Positions 5,643-59,097 of a DNA stretch of 64,000 bases are shown here, piece after piece. Every line of letters starts with the position of its first letter. Positions within the stretch are counted from its first letter, which is position 1. Position numbers and translations under genes: made by a program. Where the stretch lies: the IMG/VR virus record IMGVR_UViG_3300009537_000007, positions 1-64,000 of that record; one strand, written 5' to 3'. The notes under the pieces are model-generated. The model saw only the letters and a list, made by a program, of their open reading frames with translations. It made no database searches and was not told the DNA's origin. This DNA comes from a virus.

Positions 5643-6175
5643 TAAACTGCGACTCCGTTAATGGTTGTGTGGTCGCCGTGTCGGCAAGCGACACACATCC
5701 GGTTATGATTCCCTTCGGAAATGAAATTCTTGCCGCAGGTCATACAAGGACGGAGCTTCCGAAACTTGGTCCTTGGCCTGCCAGGGGGGCTGTGTCTTAT
5801 CCTTTTGATTTTAACCGGTTTCACGGTAACGTCGAAAGGAGCCGCAATACTCCCGATTGGGTGTGGTTGAGCCTTGGGGCCGCCAAGAATTTCCTCCCTG
5901 ATATCCTTGACGGCTTTCATGATGGCGGGATATTTGGCCCACTTTAGTCGGAATTGCTCGACGGCATAAATGACGGAACTATGATTTCGTCCCATGGCCG
6001 CCCCGATTCCGGGGTAACTATTATCAGTTAATTCCCGCGCCAGCCAAGCAGCGGCATGACGGGCAATCACATAATTCCTAACCCGGCAATCATCGTGTAG
6101 GCCTTCAACCGGCACGCCGAAAACCCGGCCCACGACTTCGATGATGTTTTCTACTGTCGTGCGTTTTTTTATCAA
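5642..6175 (-). CDS. DnaA domain IV-like DNA-binding protein with C-terminal CxxC..CxxC ribbon
   Basis: RNYVIARHAAAWLARELTDNSYPGIGAAMGRNHSSVIYAV matches the DnaA C-terminal HTH signature. The tail is RPCMTCGKNFISEGNHNRMCVACR. Confidence 0.65.
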   Translation of the reverse strand: MIKKRTTVENIIEVVGRVFGVPVEGLHDDCRVRNYVIARHAAAWLARELTDNSYPGIGAAMGRNHSSVIYAVEQFRLKWAKYPAIMKAVKDIREEILGGPKAQPHPIGSIAAPFDVTVKPVKIKRIRHSPPGRPRTKFRKLRPCMTCGKNFISEGNHNRMCVACRHGDHTTINGVAV

Positions 6176-6184
6176 CGCATCCTC

Positions 6185-6514
6185 TTATCGAACACGGTGG
6201 ACGGGAACGCCCGCCGCCTCCGCTTGTGAAATCATGTTTTCCGTCCCCCGCCCTCCGGGGAAGGCAATCACAAGATCGGGGCTGTAATCATCCAACATTC
6301 GTTTGTTGCGTATTGGGCCAGCCGCCCGTCCGTGTCGCTTCCAATCCGCCCTTACAGTTGTTCCTTCGCACCGGCATTTACGCCACTCTCTAGCTAGGGC
6401 GTCGGCCCCTGTCGCGCCGCCTTCAATTAACTCTGTGATGTGGTGGCGGCCCAAGACATTAAACACACGGTCTTTATCTGCGTAATTTCTCCCGCCGCAC
6501 ACAATAACCCTCAA
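6185..6514 (-). CDS. SLOG-fold protein (DUF2493/YspA-like)
   Basis: AGGAGG then 5 nt then TTG start. VIVCGGRNYADKDRV...IEGGATGADALA...AFPGGRGTEN is the SLOG/DprA-LOG-like Rossmann pattern. The longer ORF-track N-terminus is G/R-rich read-through. Confidence 0.6.
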   Translation of the reverse strand: MRVIVCGGRNYADKDRVFNVLGRHHITELIEGGATGADALAREWRKCRCEGTTVRADWKRHGRAAGPIRNKRMLDDYSPDLVIAFPGGRGTENMISQAEAAGVPVHRVR

Positions 6515-7957: not shown

Positions 7958-8134
7958 CTAGTTTTTAGCGGTTCCTGGGGTGAATTCTGACCACCCAATC
8001 TCCGGTAGCCAAACCCTGTCGCCAGCCCGTAGATCAAGTCCACTTGCCCATTCTAGTGCCACTTTTCGGCCTTGGGGGGCGGTTGTTTCCACATCGAACA
8101 GCGCCTCTATTTCCTTCGGGCAAACATGGTCCAT
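7958..8134 (-). CDS. hypothetical protein (58 aa)
   Basis: AAGGGGG 7 nt upstream of the ATG, immediately after structured element X1. Below the ORF-track cutoff. Confidence 0.45.
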   Translation of the reverse strand: MDHVCPKEIEALFDVETTAPQGRKVALEWASGLDLRAGDRVWLPEIGWSEFTPGTAKN

Positions 8135-8154
8135 TATCTAACCCCCTTAAATTA

Positions 8155-8260
8155 GGTGGAGCGCGGCACGGCGTCTGACTAAACCGCCGTGCTTGTTTCC
8201 TTGGTTGGCCGTTACCGGGAACCACCCGGCCCAAGGGAATAGAGGCTTCCTCCGCGCTCC
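8155..8260 (-). ncRNA. structured leader element X1 (about 106 nt, closed by GGAGCGCGG/CCGCGCUCC)
   Basis: 9-bp closing stem. Internal hairpins CCUUGG...CCAAGG, CCGGG-UGGUU-CCCGG and CACGGCG-(11 nt)-CGCCGUG. The 3' end is CGCUCCACCUAAUU followed by SD and ATG. Only noise-like ORFs across it. Confidence 0.45.
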
Positions 8261-8300
8261 GAGGCGGGAATTGAGGCGGCTACCTCGCTTCCCGCATGAA

Positions 8301-8618
8301 TTATTCCAATCCCTCACCTTCGGTGTATGTGATCGTGACGGGAACACAGGCTATTCTGTCTTTACAAGAAGATATGGTTGCCTCGCGCTTGTTGAGATAT
8401 AGTGCCATTGCGCGGGTTGGAGATGGATACACATTCGTCCACCGTGTTATGGTCTTGGGAGTGGGTTTGATACGGTATTCTAAATAAGAATGCCACAGCG
8501 GCTCACCAACCACAGACCTCCACTTATCCGTACCCGGCGCAAACGAATATTCAACCTCCGCGCCATCCAGCCACGCATCGAATACTACTTTGTGCTTCTT
8601 GATTCCCTCGCGGTTCAT
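8301..8618 (-). CDS. hypothetical protein (105 aa)
   Basis: GGAGG 6 nt upstream of the ATG at 8618, directly after element X2. Confidence 0.6.
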   Translation of the reverse strand: MNREGIKKHKVVFDAWLDGAEVEYSFAPGTDKWRSVVGEPLWHSYLEYRIKPTPKTITRWTNVYPSPTRAMALYLNKREATISSCKDRIACVPVTITYTEGEGLE

Positions 8619-8633
8619 TTCAACCTCCAATTA

Positions 8634-8738
8634 GGTGGAGCGGGCCGGACGCTACCCGGCTTATCGCCTACACGACTATCGGGGTGGACAATAACCAATA
8701 GCGAATTGGCACCTTCTGTTCCACACCACCGCCGCTCC
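8634..8738 (-). ncRNA. structured leader element X2 (about 105 nt, paralogue of X1)
   Basis: Closing stem GGAGCGG/CCGCUCC. An adjacent 5-bp/7-nt-loop hairpin GCCGG-GUAGCGU-CCGGC abuts the 3' strand, giving tRNA-like acceptor/T geometry. Same 3' tail CGCUCCACCUAAUU then SD and ATG. Confidence 0.45.
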
Positions 8739-8900
8739 ATAAATCTCTAAACTGGCGGGGGTGGGCTGTGCACCGCCCTTGTGGTCAAAACCACTAACCC
8801 CCAGACCTAGCCGTATCGAACGGCTTCCCCTTTGCGCCAGGGGCGCACTCCACGCTCGGCCCATAAATCTTTAAACCAAGATACCAGTGCTATCTCCTGA

Positions 8901-8922
8901 ATAAAAAGAGGGCCGGAGCCCT
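8901..8922 (-). terminator. intrinsic terminator downstream of the HTH regulator gene
   Basis: Minus-sense AGGGC-UCCG-GCCCU followed by CUUUUUAUU. Confidence 0.5.
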
Positions 8923-9000
8923 AAGGTGCTGCGCTCTTGAGGGGAGCTACAGATTTATTTCCGTGTAAATACAAGAAGAAAGGCGGTTGTTTAGAACGGC

Positions 9001-9234
9001 TCAAGAAACCTTCTTGTAAGATGAGGGGTCGGTTTCTCGCACTTTTTCCTTGTATTCGTCAATGTGTTTCATTACTCTATCCACCATCCGCAGGGAGCAG
9101 GAACGGCCACCACGAATGTCGGAAACGAAGTTGGGATCGCCGACCACTTCTATACCAAAGCGCGACGGCGGGACTTGATTTTTTCGCAGGAAAGCCTCCA
9201 CCCTCTCCACAAAAATGTTCTGAATGCTGTTCAT
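9001..9234 (-). CDS. HTH transcriptional regulator (repressor-like)
   Basis: MNSIQNIFVERVEAFLRKNQVPPSRFGIEVVGDPNFVSDIRGGRSCSLRMVDRVMKHI resembles small prophage regulators common in alphaproteobacteria. Divergent from the 9359 operon. Confidence 0.55.
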   Translation of the reverse strand: MNSIQNIFVERVEAFLRKNQVPPSRFGIEVVGDPNFVSDIRGGRSCSLRMVDRVMKHIDEYKEKVRETDPSSYKKVS

Positions 9235-9248
9235 GTGGTATATATTAA

Positions 9249-9261
9249 TAGGGAATTTCCT
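9249..9261. promoter_or_regulatory. palindrome site a (TAGGGAATTTCCT)
   Basis: Variant of TAGGAAATTTCCTA, located in the divergent control region. Confidence 0.4.
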
Positions 9262-9294
9262 CAGACGCAAGAAATTTATTTAGGTATTTTTTTG

Positions 9295-9323
9295 TTGCAA
9301 GAGTAGGAAAAATCCTTTACTAT
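9295..9323 (+). promoter_or_regulatory. sigma70-like promoter TTGCAA-N17-TACTAT for the 9359 operon
   Basis: The -35 TTGCAA (9295-9300) is self-complementary and could also serve a leftward promoter (TTGCAA-N16-TAAATT). The spacer contains palindrome site b. Confidence 0.4.
9304..9316. promoter_or_regulatory. palindrome site b (TAGGAAAAATCCT)
   Basis: Lies inside the spacer of the predicted rightward promoter. Confidence 0.4.
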
Positions 9324-9358
9324 TTTGTAAATCAAACAGGACAACAGGAGAGAAGTAA

Positions 9359-10294
9359 ATGATTTTTCAGCAAAAGACGAGTAAATCCAACGAGTCAGGG
9401 GGGGCGGTCGTTCCCATTTTCCCCAGTGACACTCTGGAAGGTTTCAGAAATACCCTGGAATCACTGATTGCCGACCCCGGCCCTGTTCCCTTCCATCAAC
9501 TGACCCTCGATCCAGACCGGGCCAAGATCGTGCTTGAGTATTATCCCGATCCATCATCCGGTTACAGGCAGCGTCCCAAGAAGCCAAAGGTCATTACACG
9601 ATACGCTTGTCAAATGACCGTAGGCGAATGGCGGGATACCTTGATTCCGATCATCTTTACGGCTTCCGGGTTTCTCGGAGACGGTCAGCACCGGCTGAAC
9701 GCAATTATCGAATCCGGCACCACCATTACCTGCTGGGTGGGCTTCGGCGACGACGACTTAAATTTCTTCGTCTACGACACCGGTTCAATCCGCACCAACA
9801 ACGACATCTTTTCCATCAAAGGTGTCCCCAACGCCAGTCTAGTTTCTGCGGCAGTCCACTGGGTCAACGCCTACGAATGCAGACAGATCAGCGTTGGGAA
9901 ATCTCCCACCGGTGCCACCTCAACCCGTGAACGTGCCTACAAATTCTATCTTGAACATGCCGACCTGCAAGCCAGCACACATGCTGGACACCTGTTCGGC
10001 CATAAACGACTCTCAAGTCCGTCCATCATGACCGCCCTGCACTATCTGGCGGCCAAGAAGAGCCGGGCCCAAGCCGATGTCTTCTTTAAGAAGGTCGCTA
10101 CGGGCGTCGGCTTTGAGAGCCAGCGGGACCCGGCATACAAGCTCCGGGAAAAACTGCTGGACAAGAACAACGGCCCGGCCACCCGCGCCGACTTGGTGAA
10201 GCATGTCGTTCAGGCTTGGAACGCATCTCGCACTAACAAGCCGGTGGGGCGCTGGAGTCGGGGTTCTGACAACTCTTTCCCGAGGTTCATCTAA
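9359..10294 (+). CDS. ParB/sulfiredoxin-fold protein with DGQHR motif
   Basis: AGGAG upstream. GFLGDGQHRLNAIIESG is a ParB-N/DndB-like DGQHR signature. Confidence 0.55.
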   Translation: MIFQQKTSKSNESGGAVVPIFPSDTLEGFRNTLESLIADPGPVPFHQLTLDPDRAKIVLEYYPDPSSGYRQRPKKPKVITRYACQMTVGEWRDTLIPIIFTASGFLGDGQHRLNAIIESGTTITCWVGFGDDDLNFFVYDTGSIRTNNDIFSIKGVPNASLVSAAVHWVNAYECRQISVGKSPTGATSTRERAYKFYLEHADLQASTHAGHLFGHKRLSSPSIMTALHYLAAKKSRAQADVFFKKVATGVGFESQRDPAYKLREKLLDKNNGPATRADLVKHVVQAWNASRTNKPVGRWSRGSDNSFPRFI

Positions 10295-11399: not shown

Positions 11400-11551
11400 C
11401 TGAAGAAAAGAATTTCGCCGAGGAGTTTGCGGGCTACCTGGCCCCGGAGCGTGAATTTGAAAAAGAGGCCCTGTTGGAAGACCTGCGGCGTATCTCGCTA
11501 GGCTTCGGGGCCCTGGAGAGGTTACTGGAGAAATTGGCGAGGAAACTTTAA
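11396..11551 (+). CDS. hypothetical protein (51 aa)
   Basis: ATGA overlap upstream and TAATG overlap downstream. Helical acidic sequence. Below the ORF-track cutoff. Confidence 0.45.
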   Translation: MTEEKNFAEEFAGYLAPEREFEKEALLEDLRRISLGFGALERLLEKLARKL

Positions 11552-11811
11552 TGAGCGCATACGGAAAGGTGCCCGCGCCGCACATGGAAGGCGCAATAGA
11601 GAGATACATCGAACACAGGATTTATCCCGGGGGTTTTATGGCCGCGCTTCTTTCTAATGATCTAATCGGCGCGTTTGCTCGCGCCGACCACATCAATAGC
11701 GAAAAGATGCGAGAGTGGTCGGAATGGCTCTACAACGCAAAAATCCCTCATGAATGTTGGGGGTCGGCTGAGAAAGTAGCCAAGTGGCTTGAGGGCGGCA
11801 ATGACGATTAA
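11551..11811 (+). CDS. hypothetical protein (86 aa)
   Basis: Translationally coupled ORF; no family recognised. Confidence 0.55.
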   Translation: MSAYGKVPAPHMEGAIERYIEHRIYPGGFMAALLSNDLIGAFARADHINSEKMREWSEWLYNAKIPHECWGSAEKVAKWLEGGNDD

Positions 11812-12556
11812 ACTTTATAATGGCGAAGTTGAATTGGAATTTGACGAAGCCAAGCACCTTTACTACGCCAACGGCACACTGGTTGACCTGTCCTGTTCCG
11901 GTGCGCCTTACCCGCTGGAGTTTAGCTTGGCCGCAGGGTGGGCCGCCAAGATGATCGGCGAGGAACTGGATAAACGGATTATCCCTGGCAAGAAATACAC
12001 CTTCGATGAAATCCAGAAGAAGGAATTTATCAAGACCATCAAAGGAGCGTGGAGGAAAAGGCGTGACCAAGCGGCGGATATCGGAACCCTTGTTCATGAG
12101 TTTCTGGCCGAAGTGGCATCGGGAAAAACTCCAGAACTTCCAGTCAACAAAAAGGCCGCCAAGGCCTGTGAAGAAGCCCTCTTCTGGTATCAAGAAACCA
12201 TAAAGGAGCCCATTGCCGCCGAGGCCAAGGTCTATTCCCGGGAACACAACTACGCCGGGACGCTGGACCTGGACGCCAAGACGATTCGTGGCCGGGCCAT
12301 CGTGGACTGGAAGACCGGCAACCGGGTCAAGAAATACGGTGTAAAGCCGGAACATCTTGGCCAGACGGCTGGCTATCAGAATGCCCGCCAAGAAGAGGGT
12401 TATGGCCCTTACGACCTTCGCATCATCGTCCGTATCGACCGGGACACCGGAGAGATCGCGGTGCATGAGGCGTGGGATTTCGAGAGGGATTTCGAGTCCT
12501 TCAAAGCCGCGCTGACGCTCGGCAGGTTTGTTAACGCAGTTAAGGCAACATCTTAG
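11801..12556 (+). CDS. PD-(D/E)XK (RecB/Cas4-like) exonuclease
   Basis: GAGGG 5 nt upstream of the ATG at 11801. HNYAGTLDLD...AIVDWKTG is a D...D/E-x-K nuclease core. Confidence 0.6.
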   Translation: MTIKLYNGEVELEFDEAKHLYYANGTLVDLSCSGAPYPLEFSLAAGWAAKMIGEELDKRIIPGKKYTFDEIQKKEFIKTIKGAWRKRRDQAADIGTLVHEFLAEVASGKTPELPVNKKAAKACEEALFWYQETIKEPIAAEAKVYSREHNYAGTLDLDAKTIRGRAIVDWKTGNRVKKYGVKPEHLGQTAGYQNARQEEGYGPYDLRIIVRIDRDTGEIAVHEAWDFERDFESFKAALTLGRFVNAVKATS

Positions 12557-13853: not shown

Positions 13854-14264
13854 ATGAAAGTTTACGTTCGCGTCGGCAACAATGCGCTTCACCCCGTAGG
13901 GGATGTGGCAGAGGAGTTCTTCGCCAAACTTAAGTGGGGCATGGATATGCTGGTCACAATATCCAGGCCTCGAAATCTAGCTCATCACCGCAAATTCTTT
14001 ACCATGGTCCACAAGGTTTTTCAGAACCAGGAAGTTTACAGAAGTGAGGATGATTTATTGGACGCTCTTAAAATAGCCATCGGCCATGTAAAGAGGATTA
14101 TCGTTAAGGGCGTAGAACACGTAATTCCCAAGTCAATTTCATTTGCCAAAATGGACCAAGATGAATTCGACGATTTTTACAAAAGAGCCGTTGATTTCGT
14201 AAGAACGGATGTGATCCCGGGCCTGGGTGTGGCTGAACTGGAAAATGAATTGGCTGGGTTCTGA
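13854..14264 (+). CDS. hypothetical phage protein (DUF1367-like)
   Basis: 136-aa ORF. RNLAHHRKFFTMVHKVF...SISFAKMDQDEFDDFY recalls DUF1367-type proteins (from memory). Confidence 0.5.
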   Translation: MKVYVRVGNNALHPVGDVAEEFFAKLKWGMDMLVTISRPRNLAHHRKFFTMVHKVFQNQEVYRSEDDLLDALKIAIGHVKRIIVKGVEHVIPKSISFAKMDQDEFDDFYKRAVDFVRTDVIPGLGVAELENELAGF

Positions 14265-15238
14265 TGCCGACTTATTATAGGCCTGGAGAGCGAAAGAACA
14301 TCAAGCACTGGATTGCCAGGGGGCGTATCCAGGGCGAAGAACACGAACACACGGCGCGGCAGGCGAAGAGCAGGAGAGATGCCCAAAGAAGCTGGGAACG
14401 ATACAAAGTAGCCATCATCGCTGCTAACGGCGGGCCCCAGGTAGGAGGCAAGACCTTTGGTGACGCCTATGTTTTATACAGGGCGACGGGAGGGCGCAGC
14501 CCCAACCAGATCAGATATATCGAAAGGATGCTGCCGGAACTGGAACACCTGCCCCTTGATGGCATAACAACCGGCATATTACACCGGCTTGCAATCGGCC
14601 TATACCCGGGCGCGGCCAATTCAACAAGGAACAGGCAGGTCTTGGTCCCCGCCCGTGCCGTCATCAACAAGGCTGCGGAAAGTGAATGGTGTTCACATAT
14701 CAGGGTAAGAAAGCTGCCTGAGGTGAAGCCAGCGAAGCGCAGGCCAGCCAAGGGCACAGAAGAATTGTTGCTGGAGAACACGGAAGGATACCAGCGTCTT
14801 TACCTCATGATGATATTTAGACAGGGGTGGAGAATGTCGGAAACGATAAATCTTAACTGGAGTGATATTGATCTGCAAAGACGAGAATTTAGTCTTTATA
14901 TACCAAAATCCAAGACCACAAAGCCGGTGCCAATGCACAACGATGTATTCGAGTTGCTGGTGAACATAGAGGTTAAAGAGGGGCCGGTGTTTCCGTGGGC
15001 TCACCCGTCAAGTGTAAACGAATGGCTGACAAGGTTGAGGAAAAGACTTGGGGTAAAATTTACGTCGCACATGGCTCGACATGAGTGGGCATCTGCTCGC
15101 AATCAAGACGGCTTTACTCCTTCCGACATGGTGCAGGCGGGGTCTTGGACTAGTCCGGCTTCGTTATCTTCTTATCTTGATGTGGACATGGATCATGCGA
15201 AGAATGTTCTGCATAGAAGGAGGGGAGCGGTGGCATGA
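14264..15238 (+). CDS. int: tyrosine recombinase / phage integrase
   Basis: RQGWRMSETINL (Arg), HMARHEWAS (HxxR), GSWTSPASLSSYLDV (catalytic Tyr region). Confidence 0.85.
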   Translation: MPTYYRPGERKNIKHWIARGRIQGEEHEHTARQAKSRRDAQRSWERYKVAIIAANGGPQVGGKTFGDAYVLYRATGGRSPNQIRYIERMLPELEHLPLDGITTGILHRLAIGLYPGAANSTRNRQVLVPARAVINKAAESEWCSHIRVRKLPEVKPAKRRPAKGTEELLLENTEGYQRLYLMMIFRQGWRMSETINLNWSDIDLQRREFSLYIPKSKTTKPVPMHNDVFELLVNIEVKEGPVFPWAHPSSVNEWLTRLRKRLGVKFTSHMARHEWASARNQDGFTPSDMVQAGSWTSPASLSSYLDVDMDHAKNVLHRRRGAVA

Positions 15239-15267: not shown

Positions 15268-15444
15268 ATGCCAACAATACTATTGGTCATCCTGATATAC
15301 ACTAACGGGGTGTGGTATATCCCTGATGGATACTCCCCCCGGGAACAACCCTCAATGGAAGTGTGTGAGCGAAGGGCAGCGTTTGTCAGGGCGACTATCA
15401 ATGGCCGGGCCGTGGTGGATTGCGTGGAGGAACGAGAAAAATGA
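15268..15444 (+). CDS. small secreted/membrane-anchored protein (58 aa)
   Basis: Hydrophobic N-terminus MPTILLVILIY. Paralogous to the next ORF. Ends in a variant junction (EEREK stop). Confidence 0.45.
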   Translation: MPTILLVILIYTNGVWYIPDGYSPREQPSMEVCERRAAFVRATINGRAVVDCVEEREK

Positions 15445-15632
15445 AAACCTGGCTGTTGATATTCCTTCTCGTTGAACCGTCGGGAAACGAGCGATTGGAA
15501 GCATGGTCCTACCCAACACTGGAATTGTGCAGGGAGTATGAAGCTGTGATCCGGGGGCTTGACGCGGGGCGGTTAGTGTCGCGGTGTAAACTGGTGAACG
15601 TGTCCCCTGTTAAGGAACGAGACAATGAGTGA
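15441..15632 (+). CDS. small secreted/membrane-anchored protein (63 aa)
   Basis: ATGA-coupled. MKTWLLIFLLV N-terminus. Ends ERDNE inside a junction repeat. Confidence 0.5.
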   Translation: MKTWLLIFLLVEPSGNERLEAWSYPTLELCREYEAVIRGLDAGRLVSRCKLVNVSPVKERDNE

Positions 15633-15918
15633 CATTGTTGATCGGCTTCGCAGCGACCGCAATAGGTATTCCCGGCGTGCGGATATTGAGCAACAGAACC
15701 TCCGCTATGAAGCGGCTGACAAGATCGAACAGATGTTAGGCAAGGTTGAACGGCTACGGTATCTCTGCCGCCGCGCCGTTTGGACAATCGAAGAATGGTA
15801 TGCCCAGGATCAGGGTGATGTTATCGGGGATCAGACAGCAAGGGAGGCTGCTCACCGTGAGGTTGCGGTAGTGCGGGATATAGACGCCGCGCTGGCAGGG
15901 GAACGAGACAATGAGTGA
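15625..15918 (+). CDS. hypothetical protein, RLR..AADKIE-LL paralogue 1 (97 aa)
   Basis: Starts MSD at a junction repeat and ends ERDNE. Shares the RLR...EAADKIEQML motif with 15911 and 16776. Confidence 0.55.
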   Translation: MSDIVDRLRSDRNRYSRRADIEQQNLRYEAADKIEQMLGKVERLRYLCRRAVWTIEEWYAQDQGDVIGDQTAREAAHREVAVVRDIDAALAGERDNE

Positions 15919-16162
15919 CCAATGTCCGAAAAGTCGCCTGACGCGCTCACAAATAAAGCCATTGCCGGAACGCTTACGTGAGGATGCCCGGATACTTCGT
16001 GCGGCAGGGGGTTTCCCAATCACAACAGTAGAGTGTGAGGAGGCCGCCACCGAGATTGAACGGCTGCTGGCCGAGATTGAGCGGCTGCGGAAAAGTGTTA
16101 TTGAGGCCAACCAGCGGGTGCGGGAATTATTGCAGGATTCGGGGGAACGAGACAATGAGTGA
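15911..16162 (+). CDS. hypothetical protein, paralogue 2 (83 aa)
   Basis: Starts MSD and ends ERDNE. Motif ERLRED...EEAATEIERLLAEIERL. Confidence 0.55.
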   Translation: MSDQCPKSRLTRSQIKPLPERLREDARILRAAGGFPITTVECEEAATEIERLLAEIERLRKSVIEANQRVRELLQDSGERDNE

Positions 16163-16184
16163 TATACTTAACCAACTGCGTGAT

Positions 16185-16223
16185 TTGTTACCGGTAACAA
16201 AAAACATTTGTTTCCGGTAACAA
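16185..16223. promoter_or_regulatory. pair of 16-bp palindromes TTGTTACCGGTAACAA / TTGTTTCCGGTAACAA
   Basis: Perfect palindrome at 16185-16200; a one-mismatch copy at 16208-16223, 23 bp centre to centre. Upstream of a TGgTAAAAT extended -10. Confidence 0.4.
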
Positions 16224-16269
16224 AAAGATAGATTTATTTTCTCATTAGGTTAAGGAACTTTCGGCATCA

Positions 16270-16278
16270 TGGTAAAAT
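16270..16278 (+). promoter_or_regulatory. candidate extended -10 (TGgTAAAAT)
   Basis: Lies 29 nt upstream of the 16307 ATG, which has an AAGGAGG RBS. The -35 is weak. Confidence 0.3.
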
Positions 16279-16306
16279 GGGTGTAGGAAGATAAAAGGAG
16301 GCCAAC

Positions 16307-16531
16307 ATGAGGATCACAAAGTTAAAAAACGGCTACCGTATCAAACTGACTGACCTAGAATATGATGCCCTTCGCCAGGCGGCTGGTAACGGAAGCAACG
16401 GGGTTGACGCGCAAGATTTGGGGATTACGGGGCGGGGTGGTGTGTGTGCCTATAACCGGATAGCTCTGTGGGCTTTTAATGGGGCGGTGGATGAAAATCG
16501 GCGGGGCGATTTAAGCAATATGGCAATCTAA
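16307..16531 (+). CDS. hypothetical protein (74 aa)
   Basis: AAGGAGG 5 nt upstream. Confidence 0.6.
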   Translation: MRITKLKNGYRIKLTDLEYDALRQAAGNGSNGVDAQDLGITGRGGVCAYNRIALWAFNGAVDENRRGDLSNMAI

Positions 16532-16549
16532 ACGATTAGGAACGAGACA

Positions 16550-16783
16550 ATGACTGACTGGCAACTAATCGAGACAGCGCAGAAGAATGGTTTAGAAATC
16601 ATCTTATATGACGGCCACGGTGTATTCGCGGGCTATTGGGAAGGCACCCCCAATTACTGGAATGAAACCGGCTGGCAAGAAGAAGGCGGACGGGGAGGTA
16701 TGTTCTTTTCCCGGCACCCGTGTAAGCCTACCCACTGGATGCCAATGCCGAGTGGGCCTCCAAAGGAACGAGACAATGAGTGA
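16550..16783 (+). CDS. DUF551-like phage protein (77 aa)
   Basis: MTDWQLIETAQKNG...KPTHWMPMPSGPP matches the DUF551 W...THWMPLP pattern. Starts and ends in junction repeats. Confidence 0.6.
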   Translation: MTDWQLIETAQKNGLEIILYDGHGVFAGYWEGTPNYWNETGWQEEGGRGGMFFSRHPCKPTHWMPMPSGPPKERDNE

Positions 16784-17030
16784 CCTTCCACGCCGACTTC
16801 GGGAAACAGCGCACCACAAACAAAACCAAGGCACCCCGCGCCCAACAAGGCTGCTTTGTGAATCCGCTGACAAGATTGAACGGCTGTTGGCGGTGCTGGG
16901 GGGGGTCGAAACATTGATGATGGCCGTAGAGCCCCGGAGCCACAAGTCCGAATACATGGACACGTTGCGAGTGGTGCGGGAGGCCTTATCGGAGGAACGA
17001 GACAATGATTACCGTATCCATCTTGATTAA
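16776..17030 (+). CDS. hypothetical protein, paralogue 3 (84 aa)
   Basis: MSDLPRRLRE...CESADKIERLLAVL. Reads through junction copy 6 (ERDND...). Confidence 0.5.
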   Translation: MSDLPRRLRETAHHKQNQGTPRPTRLLCESADKIERLLAVLGGVETLMMAVEPRSHKSEYMDTLRVVREALSEERDNDYRIHLD

Positions 17031-17202
17031 CGGCCACCCAATCTATACCAGAAGCGCGGTCAATGTCGGAGAAGATGCCAATTACCCGGGACGCCACCGC
17101 TACGCGCTAGACGATGGTTCGGAACTGATGCACACCCGCGATGATGGGGCGGTGCCACTAGCCATCCAGATGCTTGGAACCATTAAAGAACAGCTATCAT
17201 AG
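17005..17202 (+). CDS. hypothetical protein (65 aa)
   Basis: Starts at the junction copy 6 ATG. Confidence 0.5.
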   Translation: MITVSILINGHPIYTRSAVNVGEDANYPGRHRYALDDGSELMHTRDDGAVPLAIQMLGTIKEQLS

Positions 17203-17213
17203 GGAACGAGACA

Positions 17214-17315
17214 ATGACTATAAACGGTGGACTACTTTTGTTCGTCTTTCTGATGATATGCGCCATTGTGTTTCTTGGCGGTCACGAGGACGGTGATGGT
17301 GGAAGTGGTCAGTGA
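17214..17315 (+). CDS. possible 33-aa TM peptide
   Basis: Starts at the junction copy 7 ATG. Encodes GGLLLFVFLMICAIVFLGG. Confidence 0.35.
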   Translation: MTINGGLLLFVFLMICAIVFLGGHEDGDGGSGQ

Positions 17316-17365
17316 ACAACTGACGAGCGAGTAGAGGAACGAGACAATGACTGACTCGTCGATGG

Positions 17366-17491
17366 TTATTCTCCCCTAAACTTATCCCATCGGAACGGCG
17401 GCGGCGTGTTGGCCTCCTTGTCGTATTCAACAAAGAGATAAATCCAGATTGCCAGGGCGGCGACAAACACAAGGGTTCCGAACCAGGTCAT
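17366..17491 (-). CDS. small membrane protein (41 aa), last gene of the minus-strand operon
   Basis: ATGA overlap with the GNAT stop. TM segment WFGTLVFVAALAIWIYLFV. Below the ORF-track cutoff. Confidence 0.45.
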   Translation of the reverse strand: MTWFGTLVFVAALAIWIYLFVEYDKEANTPPPFRWDKFRGE

Positions 17492-20086: not shown

Positions 20087-20234
20087 GAAATATCCCCGCT
20101 ATGATAATTGCCTTTTTTGCCCATTTGATAAAATCATCATGGTAAAATTCCTTTACATGAGTCTCATCGTGTTCGTCGATCAGAACAACGGCGACTCCAT
20201 CAGGGCTTTCCTTCAAAAGTAATTTTGGGGTCAT
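20049..20234 (-). CDS. hypothetical protein (61 aa)
   Basis: ATGA-coupled to the upstream gene. Its 3' end overlaps the endolysin start by 38 nt. Confidence 0.4.
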   Translation of the reverse strand: MTPKLLLKESPDGVAVVLIDEHDETHVKEFYHDDFIKWAKKAIIIAGIFHAKRTKSRTPKK

Positions 20235-21760
20235 AGACGCCATGTTCCGTTTATGATGTTAAGAAGACTTCTTTTCCCGTTGCCGTAATGAACACAGTGA
20301 GTGTTCAGCCAGGATGATGGGCCTGAATTATAATTAAGTCTCAGGTATGTGCTGGTTCCGACCTGGTAACAGCCTTCATAAATCCCGGGGGAATGACCAT
20401 GTGCCACCGTTGACCTGATACCAATTTTGGAAAACCCGCGTATGTTCCCACGTGCCCCGTTCAACCCCCTGTCGCCGTGCATGCCGACCTCGACACCCTT
20501 GAGGACGCAGCTTTCATCACGACTGAGGAATTTTAACTTAGATTTTACAAGCTGTTTGGCCCAATAAAGAAACGGGTCCACGGAGGCCCCGCCCGATATG
20601 CTCATGCGAGCAGATCGAACGACAGCCAACGCGGTTTCCAGATAAAACTCTGCGTTCTCCGGGTCGTTGCGCCAGTCGCTTTCCTTTATCCAGCGAGCCA
20701 GGGCTTCTGGATGATTCGACGGGACCAATATGTTCTGGGTGTATCCGGGTGCATGAATGTCAATAAAGCTGCACGCCCTTTCAACCTCAGCTCTAACATC
20801 TCCCAATCCTGACCTGTGTTTAATTTGGGCAAGAATTGGATCGCCCCTGTGGTGGTGACTGCGTGAATAAAAGTCCAACAAGTCATGCCAAACAAGGTTT
20901 TTTGGCCTTATCGTTTTCACCATGCAATCCGGTGCAGTAAAGGTGGCGGCGATTACCCTTGGGTCGATAAAATCAACATGAGTATCGCCCATAACAAGGG
21001 CCTCTGCTTGTGGGGCACGCTTAACACCATCCTTTGTGGCCTCCTTGTCAAGATCGTTAAATGACCCATCCCTGCAGGCGATAATCTGGCGAAGATGAAA
21101 AATATCGCGCCCCACCTCTACCATTGCCGCGCCGAACGTGTGGTGGAATTCCCCCTTTTTCCCGGTTTTGGTATCAGAATAATTCAACACCGTAACAGCA
21201 CCGGTCGTGACCATGATCTTCGGTAATTTATGATGCGGTGTCGGAATGGTAATAAGCTGGACCTTTGGATGACCAACAACCCCTGATCGTTCTCCAGTTA
21301 TGCTTTCCAGTCCGGTTAGCGGGGACACCGCCGTTGGTTGAACCTTGATATCAGCAAGAATGGTCAGGTATTTATTGAGATCGAACCTCCCGTCATAGAG
21401 ATGGGGGGACAGTTGCTCATCCCACCATTCGTTGGTTTCGTTTTGTTCGGACCATAGAGAGGTTGGATTTCTGTAGCGGAACGGGATTACAATTAGCTCC
21501 GCACTTATATGTCTAGCGTAGTTTCGTAGGGCATCAAGGAAGGGCCCAAAAACTGGTGTGGCATTCTGCGCCGCAGTTATCAGGTATTTTTTTGATCTTG
21601 GTATTTTTGAAGAAAACTCGACGCTTGGTGGCTTGGAAAGGTGTGGATTTGTTGGTCGATAGCCACACTCCTGACACTTGTGGCGCTGGACTCCCGATTG
21701 CCTTCTGCCGTTCTTAACAATCCTTGAACTACCACAATTGAGACATTTTTTGTCTGACAT
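20231..21760 (-). CDS. Zn-ribbon + calcineurin-like metallophosphoesterase protein (509 aa)
   Basis: N-terminal CLNCGS..(16)..CQECG ribbon. Phosphoesterase-like motifs GDTHVDF, HDLLDF, PSNHPE, GMHGDRG and AHGHSPG in the C-terminal half. Confidence 0.55.
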   Translation of the reverse strand: MSDKKCLNCGSSRIVKNGRRQSGVQRHKCQECGYRPTNPHLSKPPSVEFSSKIPRSKKYLITAAQNATPVFGPFLDALRNYARHISAELIVIPFRYRNPTSLWSEQNETNEWWDEQLSPHLYDGRFDLNKYLTILADIKVQPTAVSPLTGLESITGERSGVVGHPKVQLITIPTPHHKLPKIMVTTGAVTVLNYSDTKTGKKGEFHHTFGAAMVEVGRDIFHLRQIIACRDGSFNDLDKEATKDGVKRAPQAEALVMGDTHVDFIDPRVIAATFTAPDCMVKTIRPKNLVWHDLLDFYSRSHHHRGDPILAQIKHRSGLGDVRAEVERACSFIDIHAPGYTQNILVPSNHPEALARWIKESDWRNDPENAEFYLETALAVVRSARMSISGGASVDPFLYWAKQLVKSKLKFLSRDESCVLKGVEVGMHGDRGLNGARGNIRGFSKIGIRSTVAHGHSPGIYEGCYQVGTSTYLRLNYNSGPSSWLNTHCVHYGNGKRSLLNIINGTWRL

Positions 21761-23735: not shown

Positions 23736-24850
23736 TATTGCAGCGCCTTCACATGGAGATGGGAGAAGCCATTGCTTTTCGTAATGAAGAAGAAGAAATC
23801 ATCTCCATCTGTGGTTGAAATCGTGTCTCCGTCCACCAGAGTAAATCCAGATGTGGTGATCGTTCCGGCGCTTGCGTTGTTCGTATATTGAATGATAATG
23901 GTGCAACTGTTCGTCGGCGGAGCCAACGTGTGCGCCCCACCGTTGACGGCGTATTGCATATTGCCGTTAGCTTCATCGGGGGTGAATGTCCCGCTGGATT
24001 TGGTCCCGGCGTTGTAATCCGTGGCCGCAAAACCAACCGTTAGAACATCTGCCGTATCTGCGTAGAGCGTGTCCACATCAACTGCCTTACCACTTGCCCT
24101 TACGTAATTGGTGCAGCGATATGTCCCCGCGCCGTATTCGATAAACTCAGCCTCATCCCCAGCGGCAGTGGTAATGTTAACACCGCCCGGAAGAATCAGG
24201 TTCGTCGCATGATGAGTAAGGGTGAGGGCTCCGTCGAAGTGCAGCTTGATCTGAGTTCCAGCGCCGCCGGTAGTGTTGATCGATGTAATCGTGGTGGTGC
24301 CGGTAACGTCGAAGTAATTGCCGTCCGTTAAGACTGCAAGGGCCGTGGCACTAGCCACATCGGCCCCCTGTGACCACTGTATTTGCGCCCCATTACAATC
24401 CAGATCGCCACCGAGTTGTGGGGTGGTGTCTTCTACTATGTTGGAAAGGGAGTCGGCAATGTAATCAAGTCCTGCGATAACATTGGTGCCGTCGCAGTAG
24501 AGCATGGTCTTCTTGCCCTGCGTCACCGCGATGCCGGACCCGGCGGCGGTCTTAACCGTCAGGGTATAGGCCCCGGAGGTGTTGTTGAAGATGAAGTAAA
24601 CCTTGTCGCTGGTAGGAACGATGACGTTGATGTTGCCTGTAAGTGCCCCGTTATATTCGTGCCAGGCGTTCAGAGCCTCGGCAGAAGTTAAAGTAACATC
24701 AGACGATCCCGCAACACTCTTGGACAGCCGTGCGGCAACAGCATCATCGATATTATCCAGGACGGCGTTGAGCGCGGTGCCCCAGGTATTATTGTTATCG
24801 CCCGTTCCTTGTTTATCTAACGAAAGGGCGTCAGTATATGTGCTTGCCAT
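23735..24850 (-). CDS. tail fibre protein
   Basis: N-terminus ...LSLDKQGTGDNNNTWGTALNAVLDNIDDAV is a typical fibre N-terminal adaptor. G/T/A-rich beta-repeat body. Lies downstream of the giant gene, as T7 gp17 does. Confidence 0.6.
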   Translation of the reverse strand: MASTYTDALSLDKQGTGDNNNTWGTALNAVLDNIDDAVAARLSKSVAGSSDVTLTSAEALNAWHEYNGALTGNINVIVPTSDKVYFIFNNTSGAYTLTVKTAAGSGIAVTQGKKTMLYCDGTNVIAGLDYIADSLSNIVEDTTPQLGGDLDCNGAQIQWSQGADVASATALAVLTDGNYFDVTGTTTITSINTTGGAGTQIKLHFDGALTLTHHATNLILPGGVNITTAAGDEAEFIEYGAGTYRCTNYVRASGKAVDVDTLYADTADVLTVGFAATDYNAGTKSSGTFTPDEANGNMQYAVNGGAHTLAPPTNSCTIIIQYTNNASAGTITTSGFTLVDGDTISTTDGDDFFFFITKSNGFSHLHVKALQ

Positions 24851-27800
24851 TAGTCAGCCTCAAATTGGGTTTTCAGTTGTGCCATCGCCTTAGCCAGGCG
24901 CATTTTCACTTTGCGAACCTCGTCTTTCCTCTCACGCTTCTCCGTGCCGGTCATACCTTTGTGACTGCTTATCGCACGCATCATCCTGTTTAATTTTCGC
25001 ATCTGAATGTCTGCGTTGTTCAGGGATTTCCGCATGGCCAGCTTGTTCCTGTTCTCCATCAGGAGTTCCTGGGCATACTTGACTTCACCATCAGCGATTA
25101 GTTTTTGGATGGTGTCGTGGAGGCTCTGCGCTTCTTCGCGCATCTCATAGAACTGATGAATGGCCTTGGAAGACTTGGGCACTTCCGGTCCCACAAACCT
25201 ACGCAGGGCCACGATATCGGACGGCATCATGGCTTCCTTGCTTGGATAGTCGCCGACTCCCATCATCATCCAGTCTGCCAGATTCAGGCCATATGCTCCT
25301 ATGTTGGCGAAATAGCCCTCAATCACGGTTTCGATATACTTGGGTGAAACATTAGTCATGCGACCGATGTGCCTGGCCGCAATACTGGTGTTGTCATCAT
25401 ATTGTTCTGCGGGCTGTAGCCGCTCTTCCCATGGCTGGAGAATCTTGCGCTCCCGGAACTCGTCCTTGTTCGAGTAAATGCGAACAATTGGAACCGCTGC
25501 CTGCGGCACGATACTGAACCTGAACATCTCGCTCATGATCCACCTCATGCGCTGGAGAAATTCCTTACCCTCCCCCTTCTTGAGAAGATCAAGCGTCCGT
25601 TCCGGGATGCTGCCGAACAGGGCACCGACCTCGAACGGCTTGGGCAGCTTAAGCGGCTCCTTCAGGCCGAGGGCGTCACTGATGCCGTAGAACCACCAGT
25701 AGGTGTCGCGCTGGTAATCCGTCAAATCGTTGAACCGCTCATCGTCTTCGTTACTGAGCCAGAGCGCGGTCGTGGCAGCCATGACCAAACCAGCCTTTAT
25801 CATGAAGGCGCGGTTGAGCTTCGCGGTTTGCTCCTGACCTTCCCGCGCGCCACGGTAGGTTCGATACAAACCCTGAAGGCCAGCATTGAAAAACGGCACC
25901 GTATCAGCAAGGAAACGGATCAGGAAATAGTCTCCACGCATGCCGAAATCAGTGCTGATTTCGCGGGCCTGGTAAGCTGCCTCCATGAGCCCGACACCAT
26001 CCTTGCGGAGCTTCTTGAAAGCCCCGACGCGAGTGGAGTATTCGAGTGTGGATTCAATTCGTTGGAGCGCTCCGACATAATCGGACGGATTTTCGAGAAT
26101 GCTCGCTTTTTCACCACGGATGAATTTCTTCACGACACTCTTCAGGCTTGGCCTGTCAGCCTCGAACAGGGCCGACATTCCGGCTCCGGCCTGCAGAAAT
26201 TCATGCCAGTATTCATCCCCGCCAACCCAGTTGCCGTCCTTGTCGATACGGGGAAGTTGAGACTTGATGCCTTTGATACTGTCGATAAGCGGCTTGAATC
26301 CCTTGTGAGAAATCACCGAGGCGTGCATGGTGTCGCGCACGAAGTTGGCCGCCTGGAAGCTGGGGTCCAGCCCGACCATCATGGTGAGCAGGTTCTTGGC
26401 TTTCTTGAGCGGCTTTATTAGTGCATGCGTGTCCTTGCGATGCAGCATGGTAAACGACCGGAACAACATCGGATCGTCAACTTCGTAGAACTCAACCTTG
26501 CCATCCTCGACCACCGACACGATGTTATCGCCTTTCGGGGCATTACCGAGTGACCACAGGACGCGCAGGGCACCGGGATTGATGTCGTCTTCCGGTGTCA
26601 CCTCCAACCCCTGCTCATAGAGATCATCCACCATCTGCTTGTTCGTTACCAGGGCCCTTTTGGCCTTCCTGCCGATCCTGCTCATGAACAGATCGCCGGA
26701 TTTTCTGTTGAGATCAACGGCGCGGCGCATGACTTCGTTTTTTATGCTTGCTTCGATCAGACGATGTATGTTGTGTTCGTAATTGATTAGCGGATGTTCG
26801 ATCTTGCTCTTGCCGCCGGTAAGCCGGTAAAAGTTTGGATGTTGCCCGGAAAAACCCAGTCTGGACCTGGGGCTCTTGACACCCTTGCCGTTTTCTGTGA
26901 TGCGGAAGAAAGGCACATAGTTCTTGTGCATCTCATCGAAAAACGCCCGAGTATCAGCATCCAGCAGGCCGGACTCCTGTGCAAAGTCGAGTATCTTGCC
27001 GTTATAGGTCTGCAGGTCGTCGAATAGTCCGGCGAAGTCGGGGTGCTTGCGGTCCAGGGCGTCGATGGCAGCCGCAGTATCGTGGTTTGCGAACAGGGCT
27101 TCCCGGCCAACCTTTACCAAGTTTCCATTTACGTCATAAACTTTCTTGCCGCCATCCATGGCTTTAAGCTCTTCGGCTCGGCGAGAGGCCAGATAAACCT
27201 CGAACTCTTCGGCTCGCTCACCGCCGATTTCGTCCATGATTCCCATGGGAGCCTTTACACCGGCATCGATGGTGGTGGTCCCCTCCTTCCAGACCGGAGC
27301 CCCCAGGAACATTGCTTCAAAAATCAGGTCGTTGATGCCTCGGGTCAACCGGGCCAGCTTATAGGCGCTGCGGGAGTCCTCATAAAGCTGCTGGACTCCA
27401 TCGACCGCCAGCCGGGATTTCTCCTCCATAACCTTTATGAAGTGGAGATCGTCTGCTACCGACTGCTTGGCGCGGTCCACGAACTTGTCGGCCAGGACCT
27501 CGGAAACCCTCTCTTTCCATGGCTGCTTCTTGTCGGCACCGATATTATTGAGGATGCCCTTGACGATTCCTGCCTCTTTGGCAGTCAGGGAGTATTGCTC
27601 GCTGCCAGGCATTCCGGGTAGTGCCGTGCCCTTGCGCCTGCCGACTTCGCCGCTCTCGACTCGCCCTAATACGTCCTCAATGGTCTGAAAGCCAAGGCCA
27701 CGCAACATATTGCCCGTCCTCTGCAGGAAGTCGGTGAGCCGTTTGAACATGCGCTTGAAGCCTGGCGGGAAATTCTCGCCGCGCCGGTAAGACGAAAAGG

Positions 27801-58937: not shown

Positions 58938-59014
58938 TGGTCGGGGGGGCTGGATTTGAACCAGCGGCCCTTCGCTCCCAAAGCGAATGCGCTACCAGAC
59001 TGCGCCACACCCCG
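58938..59014 (-). tRNA. tRNA-Pro (anticodon UGG), CCA encoded
   Basis: Hand-folded cloverleaf: acceptor CGGGGUG/CCCCCCG (one mismatch), D stem GCGC/GCGC, anticodon stem UUCGC/GCGAA with loop UUUGGGA, T arm GCUGG-UUCAAAU-CCAGC, then A-CCA. Confidence 0.85.
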
Positions 59015-59022
59015 ATAATTTT

Positions 59023-59097
59023 TGGAGCCGGTTACAGGAGTCGAACCCGTGCCTCATCCTTACGAAAGGTGCGTGCTGCCGTTAACACTAAACCGGC
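59023..59097 (-). tRNA. tRNA-Thr (anticodon CGU), CCA encoded
   Basis: Acceptor GCCGGUU/AACCGGC, anticodon loop UUCGUAA, T arm ACGGG-UUCGACU-CCUGU, then U-CCA. One C-A mismatch in the anticodon stem. Confidence 0.7.

Follow-up and report, generated by a model that had tools for sequence, protein, structure and literature searches.

The first 64,000 nucleotides of the IMG/VR virus record IMGVR_UViG_3300009537_000007 (the window) contain an array of small open reading frames (ORFs) that are joined by nine copies of a 15-mer, GGAACGAGACAATGA, which carries the start codon of the next gene. This start-associated junction repeat is a real and statistically robust feature. It consists of a Shine-Dalgarno (SD) sequence, a spacer and an AUG, often with the UGA of the upstream gene; the unit is local to the array, is independent of the cassette that it precedes and is far better conserved than its coding context. 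We consider it moderately probable that the 15-mer is a junction for translational coupling which is probably kept uniform by recombination and is probably also the seam between cassettes.

Eight exact matches to GGAACGAGACAATGA, on the + strand only, start at 15614, 15900, 16144, 16539, 16765, 16994, 17203 and 17336; the ninth copy (15429-15444) is an indel variant, GGAACGAGAAAAATGA, in which the CA of the 15-mer is replaced by AAA. When matches at up to 2 mismatches were counted in dinucleotide shuffles (n=100), 0.18 were expected and none of the 100 shuffles reached eight. Outside 15429-17354 the 64-kb window has no further copy, and none was found on the - strand; two extra matches that appear at 3 mismatches (14395 and 38042) are at the chance level. 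Aligned with 20 nt of flank on each side, the nine copies form a block with sharp edges between unrelated flanks, and the base 5' of the block is a purine in all nine. A 19-mer with G, ATGAGTGA, occurs four times and one with C, ATGACTGA, twice, while the copies at 16538 and 17335 (copies 5 and 9) have 22 nt in common. Following ATGA, four copies read ATGAGTGAC or ATGAGTGAT, the two that share 22 nt read ATGACTGACT, and ATGATTAC, ATGACTAT and ATGAAAAC are found in one copy each. The copies, all on the + strand, are as follows (aa, amino acids).

Copy 1, 15429-15444, +: variant GGAACGAGAAAAATGA; ATG at 15441 starts a 63-aa ORF, which overlaps by ATGA with the upstream ORF (end, EEREK-stop).
Copy 2, 15614-15633, +: GGAACGAGACAATGAGTGAC; ATG at 15625 starts MSD paralogue 1, which overlaps by 8 nt with the upstream ORF (end, KERDNE-stop).
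Copy 3, 15900-15919, +: GGAACGAGACAATGAGTGAC; ATG at 15911 starts MSD paralogue 2; the upstream ORF ends GERDNE-stop.
Copy 4, 16144-16162, +: GGAACGAGACAATGAGTGA(T); ATG at 16155 starts an MSD paralogue truncated to 21 codons; the upstream ORF ends GERDNE-stop.
Copy 5, 16538-16559, +: AGGAACGAGACAATGACTGACT; 7 nt past the TAA of 16307-16531; ATG at 16550 (18 nt past the stop) starts a DUF551-like ORF.
Copy 6, 16765-16784, +: GGAACGAGACAATGAGTGAC; ATG at 16776 starts MSD paralogue 4; the DUF551-like ORF ends KERDNE-stop.
Copy 7, 16994-17008, +: GGAACGAGACAATGA(TTAC); ATG at 17005 starts a 65-aa ORF; the upstream ORF continues across the copy (EERDNDYRIHLD-stop) and overlaps this ORF by 26 nt.
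Copy 8, 17203-17217, +: abuts the TAG stop of 17005-17202; ATG at 17214 starts a 33-aa hydrophobic ORF.
Copy 9, 17335-17356, +: 22 nt in common with copy 5; 20 nt past the previous stop; ATG at 17347 opens just 10 codons.

Since its ATG opens so few codons, copy 9 is a junction of terminal or remnant type; the operon and the minus-strand genes converge there.

In every copy the ATG stands in the same register and opens an ORF (63, 97, 83, 21, 77, 84, 65, 33 and 10 codons), with the N-termini MKT, MSD (four times), MTD (twice), MIT and MTI. For every ORF of at least 58 codons the proposed frame has the best codon-usage log-likelihood of the six, with scores in the range of control genes from the same contig, and the public gene calls of the 64,534-nt JGI contig include five motif-linked ORFs as well as both array ORFs that lack the motif. 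The array proteins form singleton clusters among 15 billion proteins. Together with paralogy, the ORF list, codon usage and the public calls define an array of 11 small ORFs at 15268-17379 on the + strand.

ORF 1, 15268-15444, +: first ORF, without the motif.
ORF 2, 15441-15632, +: started by copy 1.
ORF 3, 15625-15918, +: started by copy 2.
ORF 4, 15911-16162, +: started by copy 3.
ORF 5, 16155-16220, +: started by copy 4.
ORF 6, 16307-16531, +: inserted gene, without the motif.
ORF 7, 16550-16783, +: started by copy 5.
ORF 8, 16776-17030, +: started by copy 6.
ORF 9, 17005-17202, +: started by copy 7.
ORF 10, 17214-17315, +: started by copy 8.
ORF 11, 17347-17379, +: started by copy 9.

The preceding ORF also reads six of the nine copies, in one frame (..GAA CGA GAx..), as E-R-D/E-N/K. 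Four of these ORFs (15441-15632, 15625-15918, 15911-16162 and 16550-16783) end ERDNE-stop with an 8-nt overlap (ATGAGTGA), the stop lying 5 nt past the ATG; of the other two, one ends EEREK-stop with an ATGA overlap and one continues for eight more codons. The remaining three copies lie 0, 7 and 20 nt downstream of the previous stop. AlphaFold models an MSD paralogue as a plain hairpin of helices, with disorder in the tail that the motif encodes (pLDDT <50 at residues 95-97), and this predicted disorder suggests that the constraint acts on the nucleic acid rather than on the protein, with the ERDNE tail as a by-product.

The motif is not tied to one type of gene. The MSD family ('MSD-RLR...AAxxIExL') is represented in the array by three full-length paralogues and a truncated one, 38-40% identical; five copies precede ORFs that are not paralogous to it, and the downstream ORFs span MSD paralogues, the DUF551-like ORF and the 65-aa, 63-aa and 33-aa ORFs. 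The DUF551 likeness of 16550-16783 is marginal (PF04448 at 21.8 bits with a cut-off of 22; phrog_924 at 1.9e-6). Profile searches of Pfam, PHROGs and PDB returned nothing informative for the MSD family, and no relatives were detected for the remaining array ORFs. An earlier note on this DNA had described nine copies in 1.9 kb, one of them a variant and none elsewhere in the window, an ATG that is always a candidate start, four upstream ORFs that read the repeat as ERDNE-stop with an 8-nt overlap, and independence from ORF content; that description holds in each respect. The ORFs at 15268 and 15441 (58 and 63 aa) form a second tandem paralogue pair with 31% identity; both have two cysteines and a hydrophobic N-terminus, and only the second follows a copy of the motif, the variant one.

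The earlier note had also held that the repeat contains no canonical SD sequence, a claim that fails because R-GGA forms an SD-like run in all nine copies. With the preceding purines the copies read AGGA, GGGGA, GAGGA or GGAGGA, 8-9 nt upstream of the ATG. Their duplex energies with the 3' tail of 16S rRNA (-4.2 to -9.5 kcal/mol) correspond to a modest to good SD sequence, compared with -3.8 to -11.6 for the other starts of the same operon and a background mean of -3.9. The oddity of the motif is its invariant 8-nt spacer, ACGAGACA, which rRNA pairing leaves unexplained and for which no complement could be read in the 16S tail used. In a local-folding model all nine copies are somewhat more accessible than a median 15-mer, at the 53rd-97th percentile.

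No consensus RNA structure is predicted across the copies, an Rfam search gave just a sub-threshold microRNA match on a palindrome, and a promoter and terminator scan found nothing at the motif copies. Three other identities for the repeat were rejected: an extracytoplasmic-function (ECF)-type -35 element (GGAAC) or a minus-strand promoter, for which there is no conserved -10 partner and which would imply an implausible nine promoters in 1.9 kb; a CRISPR-like array, the repeat being too short, the spacing irregular and the intervals coding; and programmed frameshifting, there being no slippery site.

Ribosomes that terminate within a few nucleotides of an SD-preceded AUG re-initiate there, a process known as translational coupling. 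The repeat would be a portable gene junction made of the 3' part of the SD sequence (R-GGA), a fixed, A-rich 8-nt spacer and the AUG of the next gene, with most copies placed inside the last five codons of the preceding gene, and usually with the UGA of that gene 5 nt past the AUG. On one long early transcript (ninB-int-array), ribosomes that end one mini-gene would be released on top of the next start and would re-initiate, so that all cassettes would be translated, by coupling, from the same initiation region.

The same region could instead be the target of a trans-acting protein or small RNA encoded by phage or host, the 15-mer being an mRNA operator that covers SD, spacer and AUG and switches the array on and off jointly. 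T4 RegA and RegB act on early initiation regions. The spacer that 16S pairing does not explain, the perfect identity of eight copies and the absence of the motif from other genes of the same operon all speak for an operator, and the same reasoning has been applied to the start-associated sequences (SAS) of cluster K and EF phages (PMC3203893, PMC7302621, PMC12699233). Binding sites usually tolerate some variation, however; there is no identified candidate for a binding protein and no predicted conserved structure, and in the window outside the array the longest antisense match is 9 nt, the chance level, which leaves no complementary RNA partner there. The nearest relatives, moreover, hold degenerate versions only, which is unexpected with a co-evolving factor. 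We regard an operator of this SAS type as unlikely.

These relatives are distant. No second genome with GGAACGAGACAATGA was found in collections of viral, metagenome or genome contigs, which also lack the source contig of the window. In the viral contigs the 15-mer occurs at 45 loci, in single copy at each as expected by chance, with no second copy (up to 2 mismatches) except in L060, which is unrelated; the 19-mer gave single chance matches only in the metagenome and genome contigs. A blastn search of the region against GenBank phages gave no match, and queries with the integrase, ninB, the DUF551-like ORF, an MSD paralogue, a GNAT gene and a 132-aa neighbour gave distant matches only. The closest integrases (46-49% identity) come from phages L046-L050, which have the same layout as the window: repressor, Erf, exonuclease, SSB, NinB, small ORFs, Int, a small-ORF array and convergent lysis genes. 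Their arrays hold MSD-family genes, and the junctions are ordinary and diverse, but parts of the window motif are present at three of them. Two such matches, GGAAACAGACAATG (12/14) and GAGGAACCCGAAAAATGA (16/18 to copy 1), are in register with annotated starts; the 16/18 level of GAGGAACCCGAAAAATGA was attained by 5 of 100 shuffles. Fragments AACGAGACA and CGAGACAATG (9-10 nt) also lie within the 1.4-kb array of the relatives; over the whole 21-kb locus two fragments of at least 9 nt were observed and 0.34 expected. L048, a sister with a longer array, has a loose junction theme of its own, stop-AACGAG-CGAGGAT-N-ATG. The degenerate in-register matches at cognate junctions indicate that the junction type is older than this genome, in which it is homogenised. 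It had been proposed that absence of the motif from orthologous junctions of related genomes would mark it as a recent duplication scar. The outcome lies in between: the exact 15-mer is indeed absent from the nearest relatives, yet the 12/14 and 16/18 matches stand in register.

Two further observations concern these phages. The gap of about 230 nt that follows the integrase in L046-L050 (10985-11213 in L048, for example) includes a stretch that resembles, in reverse complement, the D-arm and anticodon arm of tRNA-Ser, and is probably attP; ARAGORN found no complete tRNA in it. In L048 a 51-nt direct repeat (11508-11558 and 12288-12338, 98% identical) brackets a 780-bp insertion of two genes that is absent from its sister L046, and provides an example, in a related array, of an insertion flanked by a short duplication.

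The same architecture is found with other motifs in unrelated uncultured phages. Contig L076, which was retrieved solely for its MSD homologue and likewise has no blastn match among GenBank phages, contains an array of about 20 small ORFs that are joined by a different homogenised motif, GCGCTGGGAGAAAAGGAATGA, present in ten copies at up to 3 mismatches against an expectation of 0; the upstream ORFs end ..LGEKE-stop with an ATGA overlap. This GEKE junction is also found in L108-L113, six contigs from six other samples, and its 15-nt core, GGAGAAAAGGAATGA (up to 3 mismatches), has 54 sites in the seven contigs from seven samples. The best conserved parts are GGAGAAAA and ATGA; two spacer positions are less conserved, and conservation falls off in the flanks, a profile that is partly circular because the sites were picked by their match to the core. 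The GEKE arrays lie at the following positions.

L076: 800-6100.
L108: 4999-7202.
L109: 4887-7701.
L110: 5655-7153.
L111: 5120-6587 and 9365-10809.
L112: 5762-6515.
L113: 1668-3076.

Cassette content and order differ among these genomes, and unrelated cassettes (pentapeptide-repeat, Lar-like, membrane peptides) carry the GEKE junction too, while genes outside the arrays have other initiation regions. One cassette occurs in three of the genomes with 95-100% identity that starts exactly at the junction, the upstream flanks being unrelated. In pairwise comparisons of L076 and L108-L110, 39 of 82 ends of high-scoring segment pairs (HSPs) fall at -5 to +25 nt of a junction ATG, where about 6% would be expected. 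Comparison of the arrays shows that the junction architecture recurs, with lineage-specific sequences, where cassettes are shuffled. Two side observations may be added: a MarR-family gene follows the array in five of the seven GEKE contigs, and L075, which encodes an MSD-family homologue, has a third start-associated repeat, CCCTGACACAGGAG(AACAACA)ATG, three times at 5937-5985, 6136-6184 and 6380-6425.

The junction originated as the 3' end and downstream start of the widespread 'MSD..RLR..AAxEIExLR' small-gene family, whose profile collects at least 2,901 proteins, all of them unnamed. From there it has spread to the junctions of unrelated cassettes. Recombination among the copies, by unequal crossing-over or gene conversion and with the phage recombination genes as candidates, would account for their perfect identity; cassettes would then be duplicated, deleted and exchanged with the junction as their seam, in the manner of 'linker sequences' that operate at the level of translation. 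We infer this recombination and seam role from the comparative pattern and from the precedent of the PeSL linkers described below. Two features of the array fit it: the insertion at 16307-16531 has an edge 7 nt from copy 5, and the near-empty copy 9 shares its 22 nt with that same copy. The roles that had been proposed for the repeat thus fare differently, translation initiation or re-initiation agreeing with the anatomy of the junction and a recombination joint being favoured indirectly, through the analogous phages with shuffled cassettes and the edge of the insertion.

Several points weigh against a coupling junction that doubles as a seam. Eight copies without one substitution are more uniform than purifying selection on an initiation region usually makes them, and the analogous GEKE junction, unlike GGAACGAGACAATGA, varies at spacer positions; uniformity beyond that of typical binding or initiation sites points to recent spread or homogenisation, or else to a specific factor that recognises the motif. 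For homologous recombination, 15-22 nt is a short stretch. The enrichment of HSP ends agrees with the model without deciding for it, because mosaic boundaries fall at gene borders anyway when selection removes intragenic recombinants, and it comes from another lineage with another motif. As no second genome with the 15-mer was found, cassette exchange at GGAACGAGACAATGA itself has not been observed.

A passive origin would need no function beyond ribosome binding: an ordinary ribosome-binding site would have been copied with tandem gene duplications and recently evened out by local gene conversion. Four copies head one paralogue family and have 19-20 nt in common, a second tandem pair stands at 15268/15441, none of the three collections yielded another genome with the 15-mer, and perfect identity fits a recent spread. 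Simple tandem duplication would extend the similarity into both flanks, however, whereas the flanks here show no similarity and five copies precede unrelated ORFs. The divergence of the paralogues (38-40% identity) and the synonymous differences in the codons that adjoin the motif indicate duplications that are old in comparison with the identity of the motif. Degenerate forms of it are present at cognate junctions of relatives, and an independent lineage keeps a junction of its own across seven contigs, which argues that such junctions are maintained and not transient. That the repeat is a mere by-product therefore seems quite improbable to us.

We attach a similarly small probability to a bolder possibility, that the junction is more than a good ribosome-binding site and is the recognition element of a dedicated system, either as the operator through which a phage factor gates translation of an accessory regulon or as the active site of cassette exchange. 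In the latter case the array might be termed a 'translational integron', from which the phage recombination machinery would excise small ORFs, possibly in circular form like the mini-circles of PeSLs, and reinsert them at identical SD-spacer-AUG seams. If this were true, the recurrence of lineage-specific homogenised arrays in unrelated uncultured phages would point to a general, so far undescribed way in which the accessory genomes of phages evolve.

The first array ORF begins 30 nt after the end of a tyrosine integrase gene, direct repeats bracket single ORFs and the copies are as perfectly identical as core sites are, so the repeats might be sites at which the neighbouring recombinase captures and excises small-ORF cassettes as in an integron or shufflon. 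The array does resemble an integron in having a tyrosine recombinase beside co-oriented, promoterless small ORFs that are separated by a repeat. Integron attC sites, however, consist of paired inverted repeats (R''-L''/L'-R') with a GTTRRRY core over 57-141 bp, whereas the unit here is 15-22 nt long without that core, dyad symmetry or attC-like inverted-repeat structure, and the overlapping ORFs leave no room for sites of 57-141 bp. IntI is divergent and accompanied by attI and Pc; the enzyme here is an ordinary phage integrase that is co-oriented with the array in the same operon, and is an orthologue of the L046-L050 integrases, which stand beside the gap that resembles a tRNA-derived attP. 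No integrase adjoins the analogous arrays of L076 and L108-L113. Site-specific recombination at the 15-mer is accordingly very unlikely.

Stoperators offer another model for repeats at gene junctions, in which an immunity repressor would bind these asymmetric DNA sites and block transcription through the array in a lysogen. The phage looks temperate, and the copies resemble the stoperators of cluster A phages, asymmetric repeats of 13-15 bp at gene junctions that are oriented with transcription, in having a single orientation. Stoperators, by contrast, are distributed genome-wide, share the operator sequence of the early promoter and are out of register with starts; here every copy lies within 1.9 kb of the 64 kb, the divergent regulatory region (8000-9360), as the expected place of the early promoter or operator, has none, and the fixed ATG/SD register is unnecessary for a roadblock on DNA. 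A stoperator role is highly improbable.

The closest precedent had been sought in the SAS of cluster K mycobacteriophages, and we agree, as most of the descriptive features listed for SAS (PMC3203893) are present here: nine copies, all on the + strand, at a ribosome-binding position with an ATG, with an SD core plus unpaired positions and before varied non-structural genes. SAS are known from cluster K mycobacteriophages and cluster EF Microbacterium phages (PMC3203893, PMC7302621), and their function was still undetermined in 2025 (PMC12699233). SAS and GGAACGAGACAATGA alike are short, asymmetric repeats in one orientation, with about 10-19 copies at the ribosome-binding position of ATG-started non-structural genes; both combine an SD core with conserved positions that rRNA pairing does not explain, and both are linked to unrelated gene families, with the upstream stop often inside the motif. 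They differ in sequence (GGGATAGGAGCCC or GGGAAAGGACCCC in SAS) and in register, the start codon being inside the repeat here and 3-8 bp downstream of the SAS. SAS often have a 17-bp inverted repeat, ESAS, upstream; none stands beside the copies here, where overlapping ORFs leave no room for it. SAS are spread over half a genome and the present copies form one 1.9-kb array, and the exact motif was not found in the nearest detectable relatives, which have 12/14 and 16/18 matches at cognate junctions. Because the sequence differs and the adjoining inverted repeat is missing, the junction is an analogue of SAS and not a homologous member.

The PeSLs of the T4-type phages RB49 and phi1 are recombination linkers in the sense of the 'linker sequence' model of Botstein (PMC2839356). 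They are intergenic promoter and terminator units of about 50-80 bp that make each ORF a separate transcription unit, and their recombination and mini-circles have been demonstrated experimentally (PMC2839356). As in our array, conserved expression signals flank small, non-essential ORFs in a plastic region, and both kinds of repeat are thought to be patches of homology for inserting, deleting or replacing single ORFs with expression preserved. The unit here, unlike a PeSL, is a translation signal of 15-22 nt inside the overlapping genes of one operon. Whereas each PeSL has a sigma-70 promoter and a stem-loop terminator, the scan was empty at our copies and no structure was predicted; single ORFs are bracketed here too, and breakpoints at junctions were observed only in the GEKE-junction lineage. 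Lambdoid nin-type regions also combine small, overlapping, non-essential genes with neighbouring ninB-type recombination genes, and short conserved boundary sequences at their module junctions are reported as proposed sites of homologous exchange (PMC3029335, refs 21-22 therein). Such sequences occur at a minority of boundaries and between genomes, whereas here one motif is repeated nine times within a genome and in start register. The junction is thus closest in kind to SAS and closest in likely evolutionary role to PeSL and linker cassettes, and by sequence and structure is a member of neither.

Over-conserved ribosome-binding repeats of the SAS type have so far come from a few groups of Actinobacteria-infecting phages, their function being unknown 15 years on. 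The same phenomenon is seen here in a very different phage and in an extreme form: the 15-mers are identical, contain the start codon and sit within genes that overlap. It is linked with a large family of small genes that is uncharacterised and has at least 2,900 detected members, and is found with another motif in at least seven more uncultured contigs with shuffled cassettes. Translation signals now offer a concrete test of the old 'linker sequence' model of modular phage evolution, and the arrays probably give rise to accessory genes that evolve fast and may serve in host takeover or anti-defence.

The array forms the last part of an early operon on the + strand, which begins near 9300 and converges on minus-strand genes at about 17380. 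The operon encodes an unknown 311-aa protein, a ParB-like protein, a PD-(D/E)XK exonuclease, an HNH protein, NinB/Orf and the tyrosine integrase; since its other genes have different initiation regions, the motif is specific to the array. The neighbouring features are as follows.

ninB/DUF1367 gene, 13854-14264, +: directly upstream of the array, in the same operon.
Tyrosine integrase gene, 14264-15238, +: same operon, ending 30 nt before the first array ORF.
Sole non-coding gap of the array, 16184-16306, +: two 18-bp palindromes and the upstream region of the inserted gene 16307-16531.

The palindromes, TTTGTTACCGGTAACAAA and TTTGTTTCCGGTAACAAA (18 bp, 23 bp apart), lie directly 3' of the truncated MSD paralogue, and gene 16307-16531 is preceded by a possible extended -10 element, TGGTAAAAT, and a strong SD sequence of its own, AAAGGAGG. 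The insertion that carries this gene truncates the paralogue that follows copy 4, and its end lies 7 nt upstream of copy 5. From these sequence features the gap and the gene together look like a moron with its own operator or terminator.

The window makes up most of a phage genome, a temperate-type contig of 64.5 kb. Among its products are a large terminase, a connector, virion proteins, a T5 A1-like protein, a primase-helicase, a 3817-aa polyvalent protein and two tRNAs. Judged by the genes that the contig and its relatives carry, the host is probably not an actinobacterium. The polyvalent protein (24850-36303, - strand), which has LPD38 and Strawberry-notch-type helicase domains, is probably a multi-domain protein delivered with the virion, and the T5 A1-like 'DNA transfer' protein homologue (20231-21760, - strand) is 48% identical to proteins of Xanthomonas/Stenotrophomonas jumbo phages. 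Adjacent phage tRNA genes for Pro(TGG) and Thr(CGT) lie at 58938-59097 on the - strand. Upstream of the early operon, in non-coding DNA, a 31-nt direct repeat (8722-8752 and 8846-8876) that contains CCATAAATCTyTAAAC could be an operator or promoter element.

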